Shown piece by piece: positions 24,960 to 39,247 of a stretch of 64,000 nt of DNA (the stretch's first letter is position 1; every line of letters starts with the position of its first letter). The DNA is taken from NCBI GenBank assembly GCA_965208905.1, contig OZ242365.1, positions 160,001 through 224,000 of the forward strand, given 5' to 3'. The notes under the pieces were generated by a model. The model was not told where the DNA came from. It searched no databases and saw only the letters and a program-made list of their open reading frames with translations. The DNA is from Nitrosopumilaceae archaeon (GTDB lineage: Archaea > Thermoproteota > Nitrososphaeria > Nitrososphaerales > Nitrosopumilaceae). The position numbers were made by a program, and so were the translations under genes.

Positions 24960-26184
24960 AACTCTGTGTCATAATTCTATTCGCATGTAAATCGGACTCT
25001 GCTCATGTAGAGTTACACGTTACACTTCGACTCCCGGGCTAACGATTCATCCCGCCATCTGTTGTATAGAGATACCTTGAGCTGTATCTCATGTACGATA
25101 TTCTCCCATTTGAGGGCGAGAACATGTTCACCAAACACGCGTTTAAATATAGAAAATACACCCTCCACAACCCATCTCCTGCGGTATCCAATCTTGGCCT
25201 TCCAGTACACCTGATTCTCCCTCTTCTCTTCTTGGCTTAACAGATCTAGCCGTGTAGCCTTGGTACTGCCTCCCAGTTGGTCCCTTACAGATATGCCCCA
25301 TGCAGCGCCAGACCCCCTACTGCGCGGCGTAACATTGATCGTGTGCAGTATGCCTGGAACTACCCCTGCACGCGCACATGCAGCAATGTTGGCCCTTGAG
25401 CCGTACGCGGCATCTCCATATATGATAGTGGGCATCTCTGAACCATCATCTGAACAGTCCGATGTGGTATCTGCAAGAGGTGGCATGCCCGATACGAGTA
25501 GATTTTTGTATCTGGGCATATCAGATGAGATTTCTTGCTCTCCAGACTGGTACGACATCTCAGATGCGCAGTCTGCATCAACACTCTGTCCTAACAGTGA
25601 TTGGAATTTAGTAATATCGCCTACTGACTCGTCTGTAATGGATATGGCGGTTATCTTCATGGTCTGCGTGTCAACCATCGCGTGCATCTTTACAAAACCA
25701 CGTTTTACCTTCCACTTTTTGCTCATCCACTCTCCCCTATTGTGTTGCTTGAGCCCTGTTGCATCGACTGCCAGTATACGAGAATGTTTTTTGTTTGACA
25801 CTGTTATCATTTCATTCTGATTTATATTCACATCAAGCATGCCTATCCGCTTGCGTATATGGCTAAAGGAAGGTGTGTTGGATTCTCCAATCATCTTTCC
25901 GATTATGCCCTCAAGTTGCCTGTACCGGACTCCAATCCCGACCCTGAGGGCAGCGGTTAGCATAATCAATGTCTCCGAATATTGGTACGGAGCACCCACC
26001 TTTCCCTTGTTGGCATGGTTGACCTCACGCTTCCACTCGGGGTTATACTCTATGAACATGTCTGCCCCACGCTTGACGTACTTTTCGTTGTCAGTTTTTA
26101 CCATAAAATAGATGGCTTAATGATGGGAGCTATATGTGTTTTGATCAATGTGGCGGTATTCAAGAATAGTTATGACACAAAGTT
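24960..26184 (-). mobile_element. Complete IS5-family insertion sequence, 1225 bp (probably ISH1-like subgroup)
   Basis: TIRs aactctgtgtcataa (24960-) and ttatgacacaaagtt (-26184), 1 mismatch in 15; perfect 8-bp TSD TAGTTCAC at 24952-24959 and 26185-26192. Confidence 0.93.
25013..26104 (-). CDS. IS5-family DDE transposase
   Basis: LAVDATGLK...GEW, YGDAAYGS, GYRRRWVVEGVFSIFKR (DDE triad). Confidence 0.93.
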   Translation of the reverse strand: MVKTDNEKYVKRGADMFIEYNPEWKREVNHANKGKVGAPYQYSETLIMLTAALRVGIGVRYRQLEGIIGKMIGESNTPSFSHIRKRIGMLDVNINQNEMITVSNKKHSRILAVDATGLKQHNRGEWMSKKWKVKRGFVKMHAMVDTQTMKITAISITDESVGDITKFQSLLGQSVDADCASEMSYQSGEQEISSDMPRYKNLLVSGMPPLADTTSDCSDDGSEMPTIIYGDAAYGSRANIAACARAGVVPGILHTINVTPRSRGSGAAWGISVRDQLGGSTKATRLDLLSQEEKRENQVYWKAKIGYRRRWVVEGVFSIFKRVFGEHVLALKWENIVHEIQLKVSLYNRWRDESLARESKCNV

Positions 26185-26343
26185 TAGTTCACCATCATCC
26201 TATATAGGAGATGTACTATGACAACGAATCAACACTCGTGACGGCTCCAGTGTGGAATACCAGAAAAATGCGTGGACAGCACCGGTTAGCGCCACTCTTG
26301 TATATAATTTCCTAAAAATAAAAGTGATAAAAATATGTGCTGA

Positions 26344-27465: not shown

Positions 27466-27533
27466 ATCATAGTATTATTAATTAATAATATCTGTGGTAC
27501 AAATAAGAAAGTTAAAAGTATCTTGATGTACAC

Positions 27534-29010
27534 TAGAGTCTATGCGTAATCGAATTATGAGGTATGATACCGTATACATAAATAGCACAAACCATACATC
27601 ATGTGTATGGGTATGATAGTACGCACCATCCATGTAACACATGACAACGGGCATCTTTTGGGTGGCTTGTTACATTATGTGGAGGTTGCATCCAACCATG
27701 CTGCGAAGGCATTACGCAGGGGTGTGCGTGGCAAGAAATTATATCATATTGTAGTTCACCGTACCGGCGTATACCACTCGCGCTTCGCCGACTATATAAT
27801 ACAAAACGTGCATGGAAACCACAAGGCATGGCGTACGAATCAGTTGACTGATATGCATGTACGTGCGCCGCACTATCACAACCCTGTGGCGCAGACAGAC
27901 AGGTTCGAGTTGGCATTTGATGATACATCAAAGCGGTGGAATGGCACACCATCAATATATGTACCCATATACGGCAGAGGCCGTCCAGATAAGCCATGGC
28001 TGGTCTTCCCGGTACCACCATATGTAGTGGATGAGCTCACCAAGCCTGGCAGAACGCCAAAGACTGTACTGCTAAGGGGCAATAAAATATACATTACATA
28101 CAAGGAAAGCATTCCGGATTGTGAGCCTGTATCCTGGGCCGGTGTGGACATGAATGCCAAAAACAACACCTATGCATTCGCCGATGGTACTGCAATTATG
28201 CGGCCCAACCGCAATGCACATGAATACAACAAGGCACACAGCAGGATGCTAAAGGTAAAGCGGCGTAGTGATAACCGCATCATGACAAAATATACAAACA
28301 AGGCATGGAGTGTATACAAAAATCGCATCCACAACGATATGTGTGTGGAAGCTCGGAAGATGGCCAATGCCGGATACGGTATAGGGCATGAAACGTTGGG
28401 CATACACCGCTTGTACACCAAAAACGGCAAAACATCACCATTTGTGCGTGGCAAAACAAAGTCCACACTGAATACGGGCCAAAGACAGAACGCCCTCAAA
28501 AACGCAGCCGAGTCCGAGGGCCTGCCGTGTATAGGCATCGAACCACGGAATACGTCCGCTAAATGTCTCAAGTGCGGCGGGAGTCTAGAATATATCGGTA
28601 CAAATACCGGTAAAATACCTACTCGCGGCATGTGGTGCCATACATGCCGTACAATTAGGGAACGGGATGCCAATGCGGGTGCCAACATACTATTTCGTAC
28701 CATACTGGCCCTGATGTGTAATACCACTATGTCATCAAACGCCACACTGTATCACATAACACGGTTGCTGAAAGAGGCGGCCGCTGACCGGGCAATCACA
28801 CATGGCCTGAACATTACACTTCTTAACATCATGCGGCTGTTAGAGGGCCGTAGTGCAGATGCTGAATGGCATCTGTCGGGGGCGCACAAACCGGAACGCC
28901 AGAATTCCGTCGGCGGTGAACCGATGGGCTGTACCGGGGTGGGTGATACCGGCCAGAGCGGGCCGGGACCGCCCAATGTTGCCAAGTTGTGCAATTACGC
29001 ATAAACTCTA
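27534..29010 (+). mobile_element. Non-autonomous TIR-bounded element carrying only tnpB
   Basis: TAGAGTCTATGCGTAAT (27534-27550) and ATTACGCATAAACTCTA (28994-29010) form an inverted pair, 16/17 match; no transposase inside. Confidence 0.75.
27601..29004 (+). CDS. tnpB: TnpB-family RuvC nuclease with C-terminal extension (start may be 27613)
   Basis: WAGVDMN (RuvC-I), GIGHETL (RuvC-II), NTSAKCLKC...CHTC Zn ribbon, ERDANAGANI (RuvC-III). Confidence 0.88.
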   Translation: MCMGMIVRTIHVTHDNGHLLGGLLHYVEVASNHAAKALRRGVRGKKLYHIVVHRTGVYHSRFADYIIQNVHGNHKAWRTNQLTDMHVRAPHYHNPVAQTDRFELAFDDTSKRWNGTPSIYVPIYGRGRPDKPWLVFPVPPYVVDELTKPGRTPKTVLLRGNKIYITYKESIPDCEPVSWAGVDMNAKNNTYAFADGTAIMRPNRNAHEYNKAHSRMLKVKRRSDNRIMTKYTNKAWSVYKNRIHNDMCVEARKMANAGYGIGHETLGIHRLYTKNGKTSPFVRGKTKSTLNTGQRQNALKNAAESEGLPCIGIEPRNTSAKCLKCGGSLEYIGTNTGKIPTRGMWCHTCRTIRERDANAGANILFRTILALMCNTTMSSNATLYHITRLLKEAAADRAITHGLNITLLNIMRLLEGRSADAEWHLSGAHKPERQNSVGGEPMGCTGVGDTGQSGPGPPNVAKLCNYA

Positions 29011-29156
29011 CTCAAGCAGGAATACGAATATCTCCTTGGTGTATAATTAGATGAACCACATGTGGCGTATGGGAACAAATAGTAGGGCTTGATTGTGTGC
29101 GACTCATGAGTGGTCTTGGATCGTTTAAATTAAAGCATACAGCGGATAATAATTGT

Positions 29157-29300
29157 GGGGTCGTAGCCTAGCCTGGTAGGGCGACAGTGCAAAGTCACCG
29201 CTAAGGGCTCCAGAGGTGAACTAAGCTACTGATGAAAGGATGATGTAAGTTTGGAGCTGTAGTGACCCGTAGGTCGCCGGTTCGATTCCGGTCGGCCCCA
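29157..29300 (+). tRNA. tRNA-Trp(CCA) with two introns (about 29186-29204 non-canonical; 29214-29264 canonical 37/38)
   Basis: Removing both introns gives GGGGTCG...ACGGG-CTCCAGA-CCCGT...GCCGG-TTCGATT-CCGGT-CGGCCCC-A cloverleaf. Confidence 0.9.
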
Positions 29301-29302
29301 CA

Positions 29303-36799: not shown

Positions 36800-39247
36800 C
36801 TAATCAGACGTGGAGGGTCCCGACACCAGCGCGTAGAGGCTGTCTGTCGCATGATTATACAGCGCCCTTACCTGGAACGCGCCATCCTTCATCTCATACA
36901 CGTTGTAGTCAGAGCCCACCAGATCGCCGGCCTCATTGAACGTAGTCTGGAACCCTATCGCCGCCGGCAGGAGCCGGGCCACCTCCGGAATGACCGTCGC
37001 TAGCGCCTCCGCGTTCTGGCCTGTGCCGGTCTGTTTTATAGCATCTGCCAGCACATGTAGCGCGTCATACGCGTGGTACGAGTAAAAGTTCGCGCCCGGA
37101 ACGTTTGCGTCAATGTGGCGGCTGAGGGTGTTCGATACGGGCAGTGTGATAACGCTAGAGTATCCGACCTTCTCCATCCATTGTATCTGTTCGGGTGATG
37201 GTCGTACGTCGGATGAAGTGAGGAAGGCGTACCACCGACCCTCCTGCAGGGCAGGATCCGTCCTGGCTATATCCACGATATCCCAGATCTCGGAGAATCC
37301 AAACAGCATCACGGCCGCACCGGACATATCCACGCCGGCGAGCCTGGACTTTAGCGCGTCTACCACCACACGATAGTCCGTCGCGGAATCCTCGGAGGTG
37401 GGGGCGTAGCTTATGCCGGGGTGTACCGTAATGGCGCCGATATGAGAGGCGTGCTCGATTATACGCTCGTTGAGAGATCTGCCCCAGGGATCATCCCGGT
37501 ACACTATGATGAGATCGGTGATGCCATCATGGTGCAAAAGCCTTGTGTAGACGTCCGTCACCTTCTCGTCGCTGACCCGCATTCGAAATATGTTGTCGGT
37601 CAGGGCCAGAGACGGTGACGAGGATGCATAGCCGACGGCCACCATGCCGTTGTCGTTGACAAAGTCCATCACCTGGACCGTCGAGCCGCTGCTCAGCGGT
37701 CCTATCAGGGCCATTATACCGTCCATATGGAATGCCTCTACGTTCTCCAGAGTGGCGGGCGGGTGGGTCCCATCGTCCTTCTTCAATATGTCAAGCCGCC
37801 AGTCCGCCCCTTCCCCTGCCAGATCCAGATTGTAATGGTACGTGGCAAGGCTGATGGCATCGCTTGCGGCTATCCCTAAACCCTCGGCGAGGGATCCGGT
37901 CTCGGACACCAGAACTCCGATCTTTATCTTCTCTGGGTGGGTGAACTCACGTACGCTGTCGGTGGCCGAGTCATACCTATGAGTGATACTAAAGCCGTCG
38001 TCCCCTATCGAGGATATGTCATAGTCCGACCTGGCCAGATCCCCCGCCCCGTTAAGCTCGATGTTTGTCCCCAGGGCGCCCGCGTACTCGAACAGGTTGC
38101 CGGATCCGTGTGTCAGCGGATCCCGTATGTGTTGGTGTAATCCGGGACCGTGCCCAAGACGCGCCGCCTCGGGGATTGCGGCGGCTATGGCATCCCCATG
38201 GGTGGCGTTTCCAGCCATGGTTATGGCATTACCCATGATGAACAGCGCGTCATACGCAGCGTATGCATACGTTCCCGCGTCGTTGACCAGCGAGTCTATG
38301 CGTATGTTGAGGTCGTTCTCGGGATACGCTAGCGAGAGAGCCTGGTAGTCGGTCTCGATCAGGAAGGGCCGGACCGTATCATCCGCATGGAGTTCGGTCA
38401 TCAGGTGATCGGGGCCATACCACCGGGTATCGTTCATGCCCAGAATGGATGCTTCAGCCACATGCCGTATTATCTCTACAATCTTGCCGGTGTAGTCAAA
38501 GACCACTATTCCCAGCTGGGAATAGTCGTCAACCGGCGGATCGGCGGCAAGTACGGCGCCGAGCTGGGCGGCCACCGCGTATGTATCGCCGGTGTCCGGG
38601 TGGAATTTAATCGTGTCCCGTATGCTGATGCCGTCTGTCATGTCCGCCTCAATCGCCTCATATATCGTATTGTTGACGGAATGCCCTATGGCATCGTCCA
38701 TGAATATCACGACGACCTCTTGGATACCGTCGTCTCGAAGCAGTGCGTGCTCGGCGCGGGCGTATGTGGTGGCATCAGATATGGTCCTGAATATCCGGTC
38801 GCCTGGTATTGACAGGTCTGATGCGCCCGAGGCGTAGCTTATGGCCACCATCCCGTTGGCGGCCACATAGTCCTGTATCCCCCTCAAGTTTGAGCTCGTG
38901 GCCGGGCCCAGAAATGCCTTGATTCCCATGCCGTCAAACTCCTCGACTAGCGCCAGGGTCTCGGCGAGATCAGATTTTGTGTCCCGCTTCACCACATCAA
39001 GCCTCCAATCCGCACCGCTCTCGTAAAGATACCTGTTGAACTCGGCTAGGGCAAAGTCCACGGCTCCGTTGACCTGGTTGGAGAGCACGGCCGGCACATT
39101 GCCGGTATCTGGCACCAGCAGTCCAATGGTTCTAATCTCTGGGGACATCGGGACATCGGCCGCGGCCGCTACCGTGAAAAGGGAGCCCGCGAGCGCGAGT
39201 ACGAGTATGGGTACATATGAGTGGGGGGAAACGACGGTACCATACAT
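36800..39247 (-). CDS. Secreted protein with two type-1 periplasmic-binding (LIV-BP-like) domains
   Basis: Duplicated IG.L...TG / GP..S / YAS....L / RIFR / YAYAAYDAL / NGAGDL modules; GC-rich. Confidence 0.88.
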   Translation of the reverse strand: MYGTVVSPHSYVPILVLALAGSLFTVAAAADVPMSPEIRTIGLLVPDTGNVPAVLSNQVNGAVDFALAEFNRYLYESGADWRLDVVKRDTKSDLAETLALVEEFDGMGIKAFLGPATSSNLRGIQDYVAANGMVAISYASGASDLSIPGDRIFRTISDATTYARAEHALLRDDGIQEVVVIFMDDAIGHSVNNTIYEAIEADMTDGISIRDTIKFHPDTGDTYAVAAQLGAVLAADPPVDDYSQLGIVVFDYTGKIVEIIRHVAEASILGMNDTRWYGPDHLMTELHADDTVRPFLIETDYQALSLAYPENDLNIRIDSLVNDAGTYAYAAYDALFIMGNAITMAGNATHGDAIAAAIPEAARLGHGPGLHQHIRDPLTHGSGNLFEYAGALGTNIELNGAGDLARSDYDISSIGDDGFSITHRYDSATDSVREFTHPEKIKIGVLVSETGSLAEGLGIAASDAISLATYHYNLDLAGEGADWRLDILKKDDGTHPPATLENVEAFHMDGIMALIGPLSSGSTVQVMDFVNDNGMVAVGYASSSPSLALTDNIFRMRVSDEKVTDVYTRLLHHDGITDLIIVYRDDPWGRSLNERIIEHASHIGAITVHPGISYAPTSEDSATDYRVVVDALKSRLAGVDMSGAAVMLFGFSEIWDIVDIARTDPALQEGRWYAFLTSSDVRPSPEQIQWMEKVGYSSVITLPVSNTLSRHIDANVPGANFYSYHAYDALHVLADAIKQTGTGQNAEALATVIPEVARLLPAAIGFQTTFNEAGDLVGSDYNVYEMKDGAFQVRALYNHATDSLYALVSGPSTSD

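Follow-up and report, generated by a model that had tools for sequence, protein, structure and literature searches.

A TnpB-only element with terminal inverted repeats of DDE_Tnp_4 type in a Nitrosopumilaceae genome

The present study deals with a 1,475-bp element at positions 27535-29009 of a 64,000-nucleotide stretch of DNA from a Nitrosopumilaceae archaeon. This stretch, in the following referred to as the window, corresponds to G000:C1:160001-224000 of the 2,214,775-bp single-contig genome G000, which is 99.57% complete. We are highly confident that the element is a non-autonomous insertion sequence (IS) which is delimited by terminal inverted repeats (TIRs) of a DDE_Tnp_4 (IS5-family) transposase, is flanked by a 3-bp target-site duplication and contains only the gene of the nuclease TnpB and a predicted omega-RNA scaffold. 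Very probably, it represents a transposase-less relative of composite elements which harbour both a DDE_Tnp_4 gene and tnpB in sister genomes, and was moved in trans. Its boundaries and the duplication can be read directly from a naturally empty allele, a second empty site exists for an element with the same TIR, and the TIRs are shared with DDE_Tnp_4 elements. In the first-pass annotation of the window an archaeal TnpB in a DDE-mobilised element with IS5- or IS630-like ends had been proposed; the shared TIRs and the 3-bp duplication agree with the IS5 part of this proposal, whereas IS630 is excluded.

Ends, target-site duplication and empty sites

The inverted pair formed by TAGAGTCTATGCGTAAT (27534-27550) and ATTACGCATAAACTCTA (28994-29010) matches at 16 of 17 positions (pair I2, 94%). 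It had been annotated as a 17-bp TIR with one mismatch; the inverted arrangement holds, but the repeat proper comprises, according to the empty site described below, 16 nt, the outer T and A of the 17-mers being the last and the first base, respectively, of the flanking ACT copies. As annotated, the repeats enclose exactly one gene: the single long open reading frame (ORF) between them (27601-29004) is tnpB, as it matches Pfam PF07282, and its stop codon, TAA at 29002-29004, lies inside the right repeat. If up to two mismatches are allowed, the motif GAGTYTATGCGTAAT occurs three times in the window compared to 0.29 expected matches, a number reached in none of 100 shuffles. The third match (38292-38306, two mismatches) displays neither homology to the copies of the element nor other element features and is probably due to chance. 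The element and its ends are as follows:

27535-29009, plus strand: whole non-autonomous element, AGAG...CTCT, 1,475 bp, defined by the homology limits of its copies, by diverging contigs and by the empty site
27535-27550, plus strand: left TIR AGAGTCTATGCGTAAT, 16 nt; the motif is also found at the ends of element C (DDE_Tnp_4) and of TnpB families A and B
28994-29009, plus strand: right TIR ATTACGCATAAACTCT, 16 nt, holding the tnpB stop codon
27532-27534, no strand: left copy of the 3-bp target-site duplication, ACT, present as a lone ACT in the empty site of genome G005
29010-29012, no strand: right copy of the 3-bp target-site duplication, ACT, given by the G005 empty site and the counts for related elements

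In genome G005, which belongs to the same genus, the site is empty. The left flank of the element aligns to it with 95% identity over 1,235 nt and the right flank with 98% over 1,291 nt, both flanks being contiguous there with an overlap of 3 nt (local identities 95.6% and 94.0%). The empty site reads ...TTTATGTACACTCAAGCAGGAATACG... (GTAC-ACT-CAAG; short form TGTACACTCAAGC), the filled one GTAC[ACT]AGAGTC...AAACTCT[ACT]CAAG. Since both differ by the element plus one ACT, the element spans 27535-29009, its TIRs are 16 nt long and ACT was duplicated upon insertion. An empty site had been foreseen in the first-pass annotation, yet in the form TGTACAC-TA-CTCAAGC, and the outer TA had been taken for a TA target duplication, which the ACT of G005 contradicts. 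A second, independent empty site is provided by a family-B TnpB element (346 aa) with the same TIR, which resides inside a copy of an IS5-like element: the uninterrupted paralogues of the latter read CGTACAGTATAACCC, revealing an AGT duplication for the inserted family-B element. In the more distant genome G008 the element is absent between the same two flanking genes.

In a BLAST search of the own genome two more complete copies, 90% and 89% identical, were obtained together with one 5' and one 3' half, a copy of 69% identity, a 334-bp derivative resembling a miniature inverted-repeat transposable element (MITE) and solo 3' ends. The copies possess unrelated flanks, as had been anticipated, but not the expected TA at their junctions, other left ends reading CA, GA or AA. 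On the right, copy homology always ends at 29009/29010, while on the left it extends 5-8 nt past the repeat; these conserved bases are target sequence, since they are present in the empty sites, and homology running past the repeats, a prospect raised in the first-pass annotation, is thus not seen. Close homologues, for which ordinary IS605 or IS607 ends had been considered, have the same TIR and target duplication. The sequencing runs which contain the present stretch include sponge metagenomes. In one such DNA run contigs of other copies split from this locus exactly at 27535 and at 29010, and sponge-metagenome contigs of runs X2 and X14 exhibit MITE-like joins in which 27592 or 27680 is connected to 28822. 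In the MITE-like derivative of G000 (C1:2020378-2020711, 334 bp) a left-end piece of about 150 nt is fused to a right-end piece of about 190 nt, the latter being the RNA scaffold. Joined forms of this type look like standalone omega-RNA elements.

For 13 TnpB-bearing or derived elements, 6 from G000 and 7 from G001, G006 and G009, the duplications were compared; L048, L050 (the orthologue of L044), two half copies, the solo ends and all DDE-only elements stand outside this count. Identical 3-nt duplications are found in 12 of the 13. The first base is A in all of them, the third base T in only 7. L048, whose TIR is too diverged for the search pattern, shows by eye ATA/ATA, preceded by C.

Relatives of the element and their transposases

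Profile searches for Y1_Tnp (PF01797) and Resolvase (PF00239) gave no match in the whole 2.21-Mb genome G000, while 6 and 12 of 14 control genomes, respectively, were positive. The initial remark that neither tnpA nor a serine recombinase accompanies the element hence holds genome-wide. In G000 the 16-nt TIR core delimits three kinds of element, namely TnpB family A, TnpB family B and element C (C1:1564408-1565994). The latter, with the ends TAGAGTTTATGCGTAAT and ...GCATAAT, contains a DDE_Tnp_4 gene (PF13359, E 1.4e-10) which is broken by stop codons and frameshifts and constitutes the sole PF13359 match in G000. The expectation that an autonomous transposase or MITEs might share the TIR is accordingly borne out in part: a MITE-like copy and the TIR-sharing element C exist, but the transposase of element C is broken. 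The surrounding region, G000:C1:1557000-1572000, is dense in TIR remnants and ISs, with nine TIR matches, two family-B copies and element C, and a solo TIR directly abuts another element there.

Homologous TnpB elements of sister genomes (56-60% protein identity) show a variant TIR, AGAGATTATGCAYAGA, and 3-bp duplications. Two sister genomes contain composites in which such TIRs enclose TnpB together with an intact DDE_Tnp_4 ORF covering the full PF13359 profile. These are L055 of G006 (TIRs at 867 and 4025, 3,159 bp, duplication ATT/ATT, E 1.9e-20) and L057 of G009 (TIRs at 1031 and 4675, 3,645 bp, duplication ATA/ATA, E 8.6e-21). In both of them tnpB finishes at the right end, and the transposase gene, encoded on the opposite strand, is close to the left end. 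With the TnpB half of the G006 composite the TnpB-only elements share 86-95% identity. With element C and these composites the TIR, which might have turned out to be private to the present element, is clearly shared.

DDE-only elements complete the series. L028 of G007 carries the same TIR in its sister-genome variant, and DDE_Tnp_4-only ISs of other genera within this archaeal family (L027, L031, L040) possess AGA(C/G/T)..TATGCG-type ends and strict 3-bp A-N-T duplications. The DDE_Tnp_4-only IS of G003 has AGA..TATGCG-type ends and A-N-T duplications as well, 13 of 15 pairs being identical; the G003 counts include one duplicate, L066 and L067 being the same site in inverted orientation. The nearest NCBIfam model for these transposases is 'IS5 family transposase' (51-56 bits compared to a cut-off of 140). 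The DDE_Tnp_4 fragment has 39 matches in G003, where the present TnpB clade gives none. Its IS of about 1,550 bp (L060-L075) is often interrupted by, or adjacent to, a repeat of about 92 nt (L060 3683-3774) which recurs many times.

TnpB, predicted omega-RNA and the left-flank motif

Besides the ends, the following features are assigned to the element and its flanks:

27601-29004, plus strand: tnpB, 467 aa; start at 27601, 27607 or 27613 (homologues align from the ATG at 27613)
28841-29009, plus strand: predicted omega-RNA scaffold which extends over the 3' end of tnpB and the right TIR; conserved block from about 28825, 5' limit uncertain
29010-29029, plus strand: predicted guide segment of the omega-RNA; length assumed, start possibly 29011
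27529-27531, plus strand: target motif TAC in the left flank, outside the element and present in the G005 empty site; candidate target-adjacent motif (TAM), possibly including A27532

The tnpB product matches Pfam Cas12f1-like_TNB (PF07282) with E 1.2e-8 (35.5 bits compared to a cut-off of 26.3). All three RuvC acidic residues, which had been recognised at the outset, are indeed present: D183 (28147-49), E264 (28390-92) and D356 (28666-68) occupy invariant or nearly invariant columns in alignments with 11 and with 30 other TnpBs. A zinc finger, CxxC...CxxC, is found at residues 322-349. As the NCBIfam model guided_TnpB is matched with only 39.7 bits (cut-off 100) the protein is to be regarded as divergent. 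A sequence search of the PDB returned only Cas12m4a (E 9.6e-9, residues 287-368). The AlphaFold (AF2) model, whose mean predicted local distance difference test score (pLDDT) amounts to 67.9 with residues 1-260 mostly above 75, retrieves by Foldseek AsCas12f (8j1j, E 1.2e-12), ISDra2 TnpB (8exa, E 4.7e-8) and 8h1j (E 3e-7), the other top matches among solved structures being Cas12f, TnpB and Fanzor2 entries. The last approximately 50 residues (about 412-463; window 28840-29004) are predicted to be disordered (pLDDT 25-34) and coincide with the RNA scaffold. Nucleotides 28840-29004 are almost invariant across species; for this C-terminal part of the ORF the constraint seems to come from the RNA which overlaps it and not from the protein.

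The family-B TnpB (G000:C1:1561191-1562634 and 1570175-1571618; L023 and L024) consists of 346 aa, stops before RuvC-III and matches PF01385 and, partially, PF07282. Since both copies show perfect 3-bp duplications, a truncated nuclease travels within the same ends. Of 151 genomes sampled from the family, 6 contain the TnpB clade of the present element; all 6 belong to one genus, and the clade was found in none of 26 other genera. A search of 5.8 billion sequences yielded only 50 protein clusters (47-62% identity), one of them named 'transposase [Thaumarchaeota archaeon]'.

The RNA was analysed in an alignment of 17 copies (6 of G000 and 11 of G001, G006 and G009), each represented by its last 225 nt and 20 nt of flank. 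From about 28825 to the end of the element these copies are far better conserved than over the whole ORF, while their flanks are unrelated. RNAalifold gives a structure of 48 pairs in seven helices, 15 pairs displaying compensatory changes. In 98.5% of the cells the predicted partners are able to pair, a value which drops to 34-43% when the partners are slid against each other, and changes on both sides affect 15 pairs compared to 5.4 +/- 1.1 in shuffles, none of 500 reaching the observed number. The outermost helix, UAGAG (28841-28845) with CUCUA (29006-29010), is invariant and hence beyond covariation testing. The 3' 185-210 nt are the part retained in the MITE-like and solo copies, and are found alone in relatives. 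A predicted RNA at the 3' end is the usual arrangement of an omega-RNA, and the early suggestion that the right TIR marks the guide-RNA boundary agrees with the covariation and the copy boundaries. Since the scaffold ends at the right TIR, and thus at the end of the element, the guide is predicted to begin at 29010 or 29011, i.e. within the right duplication copy; in the empty site of G005 the match to this segment lies downstream of TAC(A). Metatranscriptome contigs (X13, X18) cover the tnpB body (27694-28677), with 0-1 differences, and the flanks, DNA carry-over being possible. None of these, which are assembled contigs only, lies on 28707-29108; they show neither transcription nor its absence, nor any RNA end.

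A conspicuous asymmetry is observed in the flanks. The base preceding the left duplication is C in all 13 elements, the triplets being TAC in six, TGC in three, CGC in two, and GAC and CCC in one each. In contrast, at the mirror position past the right duplication only 3 of 13 have C (Fisher p 1e-4 for left against right; binomial 5e-9 against 23% C; the elements are kin and not fully independent, though their flanks differ). In the DDE-only element of G003 the preference, C|ANT|G, is weaker and symmetric, with C on the left in 9 of 17 and G on the right in 8 of 15 cases, one site being counted twice. In the empty allele the motif is situated directly 5' of the match of the predicted guide, while in the filled allele ...CTCT takes this position. 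From this arrangement we infer that T-R-C(A) represents a TAM-like constraint and a candidate TAM. It would enable TnpB to cut the empty allele and to spare the occupied one. The C in 13 of 13 left compared to 3 of 13 right flanks fits TnpB-dependent retention or homing at a TAM, or an influence of TnpB on orientation or target choice. Judging from these flanks, the bias may be caused by the transposase, by retention that depends on TnpB, or by an action of TnpB on insertion.

Regarding the surroundings, an intron-containing tRNA gene is located 147 nt downstream of the element (window 29157-29301, plus strand). It is missed by ARAGORN under default settings; with introns allowed it is reported as tRNA-Gln(ttg) with a 60-nt intron and an odd drawing. 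A scan of the element against Rfam gave no family match, only a weak tmRNA-clan match on this neighbouring tRNA and a sub-threshold snoRNA match being obtained. Upstream, at 24960-26191, an IS5-like IS encodes a 363-aa transposase (PF01609/PF13737) on the minus strand, with the TIRs AACTCTGTGTCATAAT and AACTTTGTGTCATAAC and an 8-bp duplication (TAGTTCAC at the window copy); two further full copies and several fragments of it exist in the genome, and one diverged copy is interrupted by a family-B TnpB element. Its different TIRs and its 8-bp duplication rule it out as mobiliser of the present element. The latter has no evident effect on neighbouring genes and is otherwise an ordinary insertion sequence which is probably stranded.

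Explanations considered and comparison with known systems

Most economically, a DDE_Tnp_4 transposase supplied in trans would have bound the TIRs and inserted the element via a 3-nt staggered cut. Transcription of the omega-RNA through the right TIR into the flank would then yield a guide, starting at 29010, which is composed of the right duplication copy and the adjoining flank. Loaded with this RNA, TnpB would recognise the unoccupied allele by the left-flank TAM (T-R-C, perhaps with A) and cut it, which would favour retention or homing as in IS605 systems. The G000 copy is now probably stranded as the only DDE_Tnp_4 gene there is broken.

Several observations weigh against this explanation. 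The cognate intact transposase is absent from G000, where the lone PF13359 match is the broken element C, so that mobilisation in trans is a historical conclusion. The transposase fragment of element C is merely 22-36% identical to the DDE_Tnp_4 proteins of relatives and about 28-30% to those of the composites. No close intact homologue of it was found among the 30 relatives searched, the best match being 36% identical, nor was an autonomous element which combines exactly the TIR of this family with an intact gene. Apart from one 26-nt TIR match, the first 110-140 nt or so of the TnpB-only elements cannot be aligned to the composites. A simple internal deletion of a composite is for this reason unsupported, and the TnpB-only elements are transposase-less relatives rather than demonstrable deletion products; independent capture or an exchange of ends are possible origins. 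One of the 13 duplications is unequal (the MITE, ATA/AGA), and element C has ACT/AGT. Finally, the one-sided C could be a property of the transposase of this lineage instead of TnpB, the DDE-only control of G003 belonging to a different transposase lineage.

We consider it very unlikely that the TnpB-only element is autonomous in the sense that TnpB, with its RNase-H-fold RuvC domain, or an unrecognised host factor cuts and pastes it and the DDE_Tnp_4-like ends reflect nothing but shared ancestry. It is true that G000 contains 77 PF07282 matches (74 above cut-off) but lacks any Y1 or serine TnpA and has its DDE_Tnp_4 gene only in broken form, that two other genomes of the genus lack this insertion, one of them being G005 with its 94-98% identical flanks, and that dozens of other TnpB-only elements of G000, equipped with long TIRs and 8-bp duplications, hold no same-TIR transposase gene inside. 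However, the same TIRs enclose an intact DDE_Tnp_4 gene plus tnpB in sister genomes, and DDE-only relatives produce the same 3-bp A-N-T duplications. Furthermore, the family-B TnpB (346 aa) lacks RuvC-III and still occurs in two copies with perfect duplications, the MITE-like copy holds no gene at all, and TnpB is, according to literature cited in the text of a 2026 review (PMC13565253), dispensable for the transposition of IS608 and ISDra2. An ordinary IS200/IS605 (IS1341-group) or IS607 TnpB element, moved by a Y1 or serine TnpA, with an incidental TIR and with the conserved left bases serving as a 4-5-nt target, would account for the short motif on the left flank, to which, as in IS605 elements, nothing corresponds on the right, and for the TnpB-only content known from the IS1341 group. 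We nevertheless regard it as highly improbable. Neither Y1_Tnp nor Resolvase is encoded in the complete genome, variable 3-nt duplications, made by neither family according to the text of PMC13565253 and PMC6188088, are present in 12 of 13 elements, and the TIR is common to DDE_Tnp_4 elements. Between TAC and AGAG each copy has different bases, which equal those of its right flank and must therefore derive from the target. An IS605-like insertion 3' of TACA without duplication can be dismissed on the same grounds, the two bases after TACA being variable and equal to the right flank.

To an IS630/Tc1-like element with a TA target duplication we attach practically no credence. Both outer ends of the present copy do read TA, IS630-associated TnpBs exist (text of PMC10691335), and an IS630-like gene (PF13358) is encoded elsewhere in G000; yet the G005 empty site lacks the predicted TA arrangement, which refutes the idea, the left ends of the other copies are CA, GA or AA, and the TIR-sharing element encodes DDE_Tnp_4 and not DDE_3. 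That the element is a decaying fossil whose tnpB and RNA are no longer functional appears unlikely, albeit worth considering: its paralogues have diverged by about 10%, two copies are split into halves and the cognate transposase gene is broken. Conversely, the ORF is intact with its full triad and zinc finger, the RNA structure remains 98.5% paired across copies, and the insertion is absent from G005 in spite of 94-98% identical flanks. The RNA-library contigs which match the tnpB body with 0-1 differences point weakly in the same direction, as DNA carry-over is possible. A non-autonomous insertion sequence with DDE_Tnp_4-type ends and a TnpB cargo thus remains our preferred explanation.

Of the roughly 75 tnpB genes in G000 most are located within TIR elements that produce 8-bp duplications. 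Most TnpB-only elements of this genome possess TIRs of 20-35 nt (GGTTCCTCCCGCAAAGTCGGG..., GGGAATTATATACAAAAGTACACA..., TGGGCTGTGACG...) and 8-bp duplications, examples being located at C1:239554-241169, 339644-341109 and 250605-252075. The two largest of these families comprise about 16 and about 20 TIR pairs; for the first of them no transposase gene with the same TIR was seen in G000. An IS1595-family IS with two copies in G000 (C1:1211856-1213986, i.e. L058, and 675271-677401; PF12762, E 2.2e-40), characterised by the TIR GGGAATTATAGTGATGGGTAGGAT and an 8-bp duplication, agrees with two TnpB-only families (GGGAATTATATAC...) in its first 10 nt and in duplication length and, from these similarities, may be their mobiliser. 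A TnpB partner of IS1595 type is not named in the text of PMC10691335 and PMC13565253. A wholesale switch of the TnpBs of this lineage from HUH or serine to DDE partners, with the TAM now shaping where elements persist or insert, is a tentative idea that we are inclined to doubt. As discussed in the text of PMC13565253, a DDE transposon of the cut-and-paste type leaves a double-strand break in any case, and why it keeps an RNA-guided nuclease is an open question. In this regard the family is a compact natural test system: its ends are exact and its 3-bp duplication is defined, filled and empty alleles occur naturally, an omega-RNA is predicted, a candidate TAM is available, and one genus holds autonomous (DDE plus TnpB), TnpB-only and RNA-only forms. 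The one-sided motif leads to the prediction that insertion or persistence is biased to TAM-adjacent sites only in the presence of active TnpB.

Compared with known systems, the element combines traits of several. On the side of TnpB and the obligate mobile element-guided activity (OMEGA) systems it shows the D-E-D RuvC triad, a TNB zinc-finger domain, a TnpB/Cas12f fold in the model and a predicted structured RNA which lies at the 3' end of tnpB and stops at the right end of the element. With DDE_Tnp_4/IS5-family ISs and MITEs it has in common the 16-nt TIRs shared with a transposase, a fixed-length 3-bp A-N-T-like duplication and TIR-only non-autonomous derivatives; unlike them it carries an RNA-guided nuclease and its RNA as cargo, lacks a transposase, without an active cognate one in G000, and displays a one-sided instead of a symmetric flank preference. 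The IS1341 group of IS200/IS605 resembles it in the TnpB-only content, in an omega-RNA extending over the 3' end of tnpB to the right end, in a motif confined to the left flank and in short RNA-only derivatives, comparable to palindrome-associated transposable elements (PATEs) or standalone omega-RNAs. The present element, however, has TIRs, a target duplication and ends shared with DDE elements, while no Y1 TnpA exists in G000. IS200/IS605 and IS607 elements have neither TIRs nor duplications (text of PMC13565253 and PMC6188088), and membership in these families therefore fails; the TIRs with variable 3-bp duplications, the lack of a Y1 or serine TnpA and the DDE_Tnp_4 partner do not fit IS200/IS605 (IS1341), IS607 or IS630/Tc1-mariner. 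Fanzor1 proteins in TIR/DDE transposons are likewise TnpB-family nucleases carried as cargo by TIR elements which generate target duplications, and for Fanzor1 the 5' duplication or flank has been proposed to be part of the TAM (text of PMC13565253). The present host, in contrast, is an archaeon, and the TnpB is compact (463-467 aa) with Cas12f and ISDra2 TnpB as its nearest folds.

ISL2 and IS1031 belong to the IS5 superfamily. Together with IS630 they are named in the text of the 2026 review (PMC13565253) as partners of DDE-associated TnpBs. Six DDE-associated prokaryotic branches (DDE-1 to DDE-6) with inverted terminal repeats have been described in the text of Altae-Tran et al. 2023, PNAS (PMC10691335), where solo TnpBs with ends nearly identical to those of transposase-bearing elements are taken to imply mobilisation in trans. 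With these in print, the contrast drawn in the first-pass annotation between prokaryotic TnpBs in IS605 or IS607 elements and eukaryotic Fanzors in TIR/DDE transposons is outdated. As far as the text of that paper allows comparison, the present element shares with DDE-1 to DDE-6 a prokaryotic TnpB within an inverted-repeat transposon, a tnpB 3' end less than 250 bp from the transposon end and solo TnpBs whose ends recur in transposase-bearing elements, the partner here being of the IS5 family (DDE_Tnp_4) where ISL2, IS630 and IS1031 are named for those branches. In the literature searched, whose coverage was partial, neither TnpB-DDE elements of Nitrosopumilaceae nor an IS1595 partner nor a one-sided flank motif was found to be described. 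The partnership of DDE transposases and TnpB has thus been known since 2023, and the element is, on a comparison by text, a clean new example of it, which the supplements of PMC10691335 may already list by family. Beyond that text it contributes a narrow Nitrosopumilaceae lineage, exact boundaries, a 3-bp duplication proven by empty sites, a covarying RNA and a one-sided motif. The parts worth following are the one-sided TAM-like motif and the genome-wide occurrence of TnpB-only TIR elements without a HUH or serine transposase.

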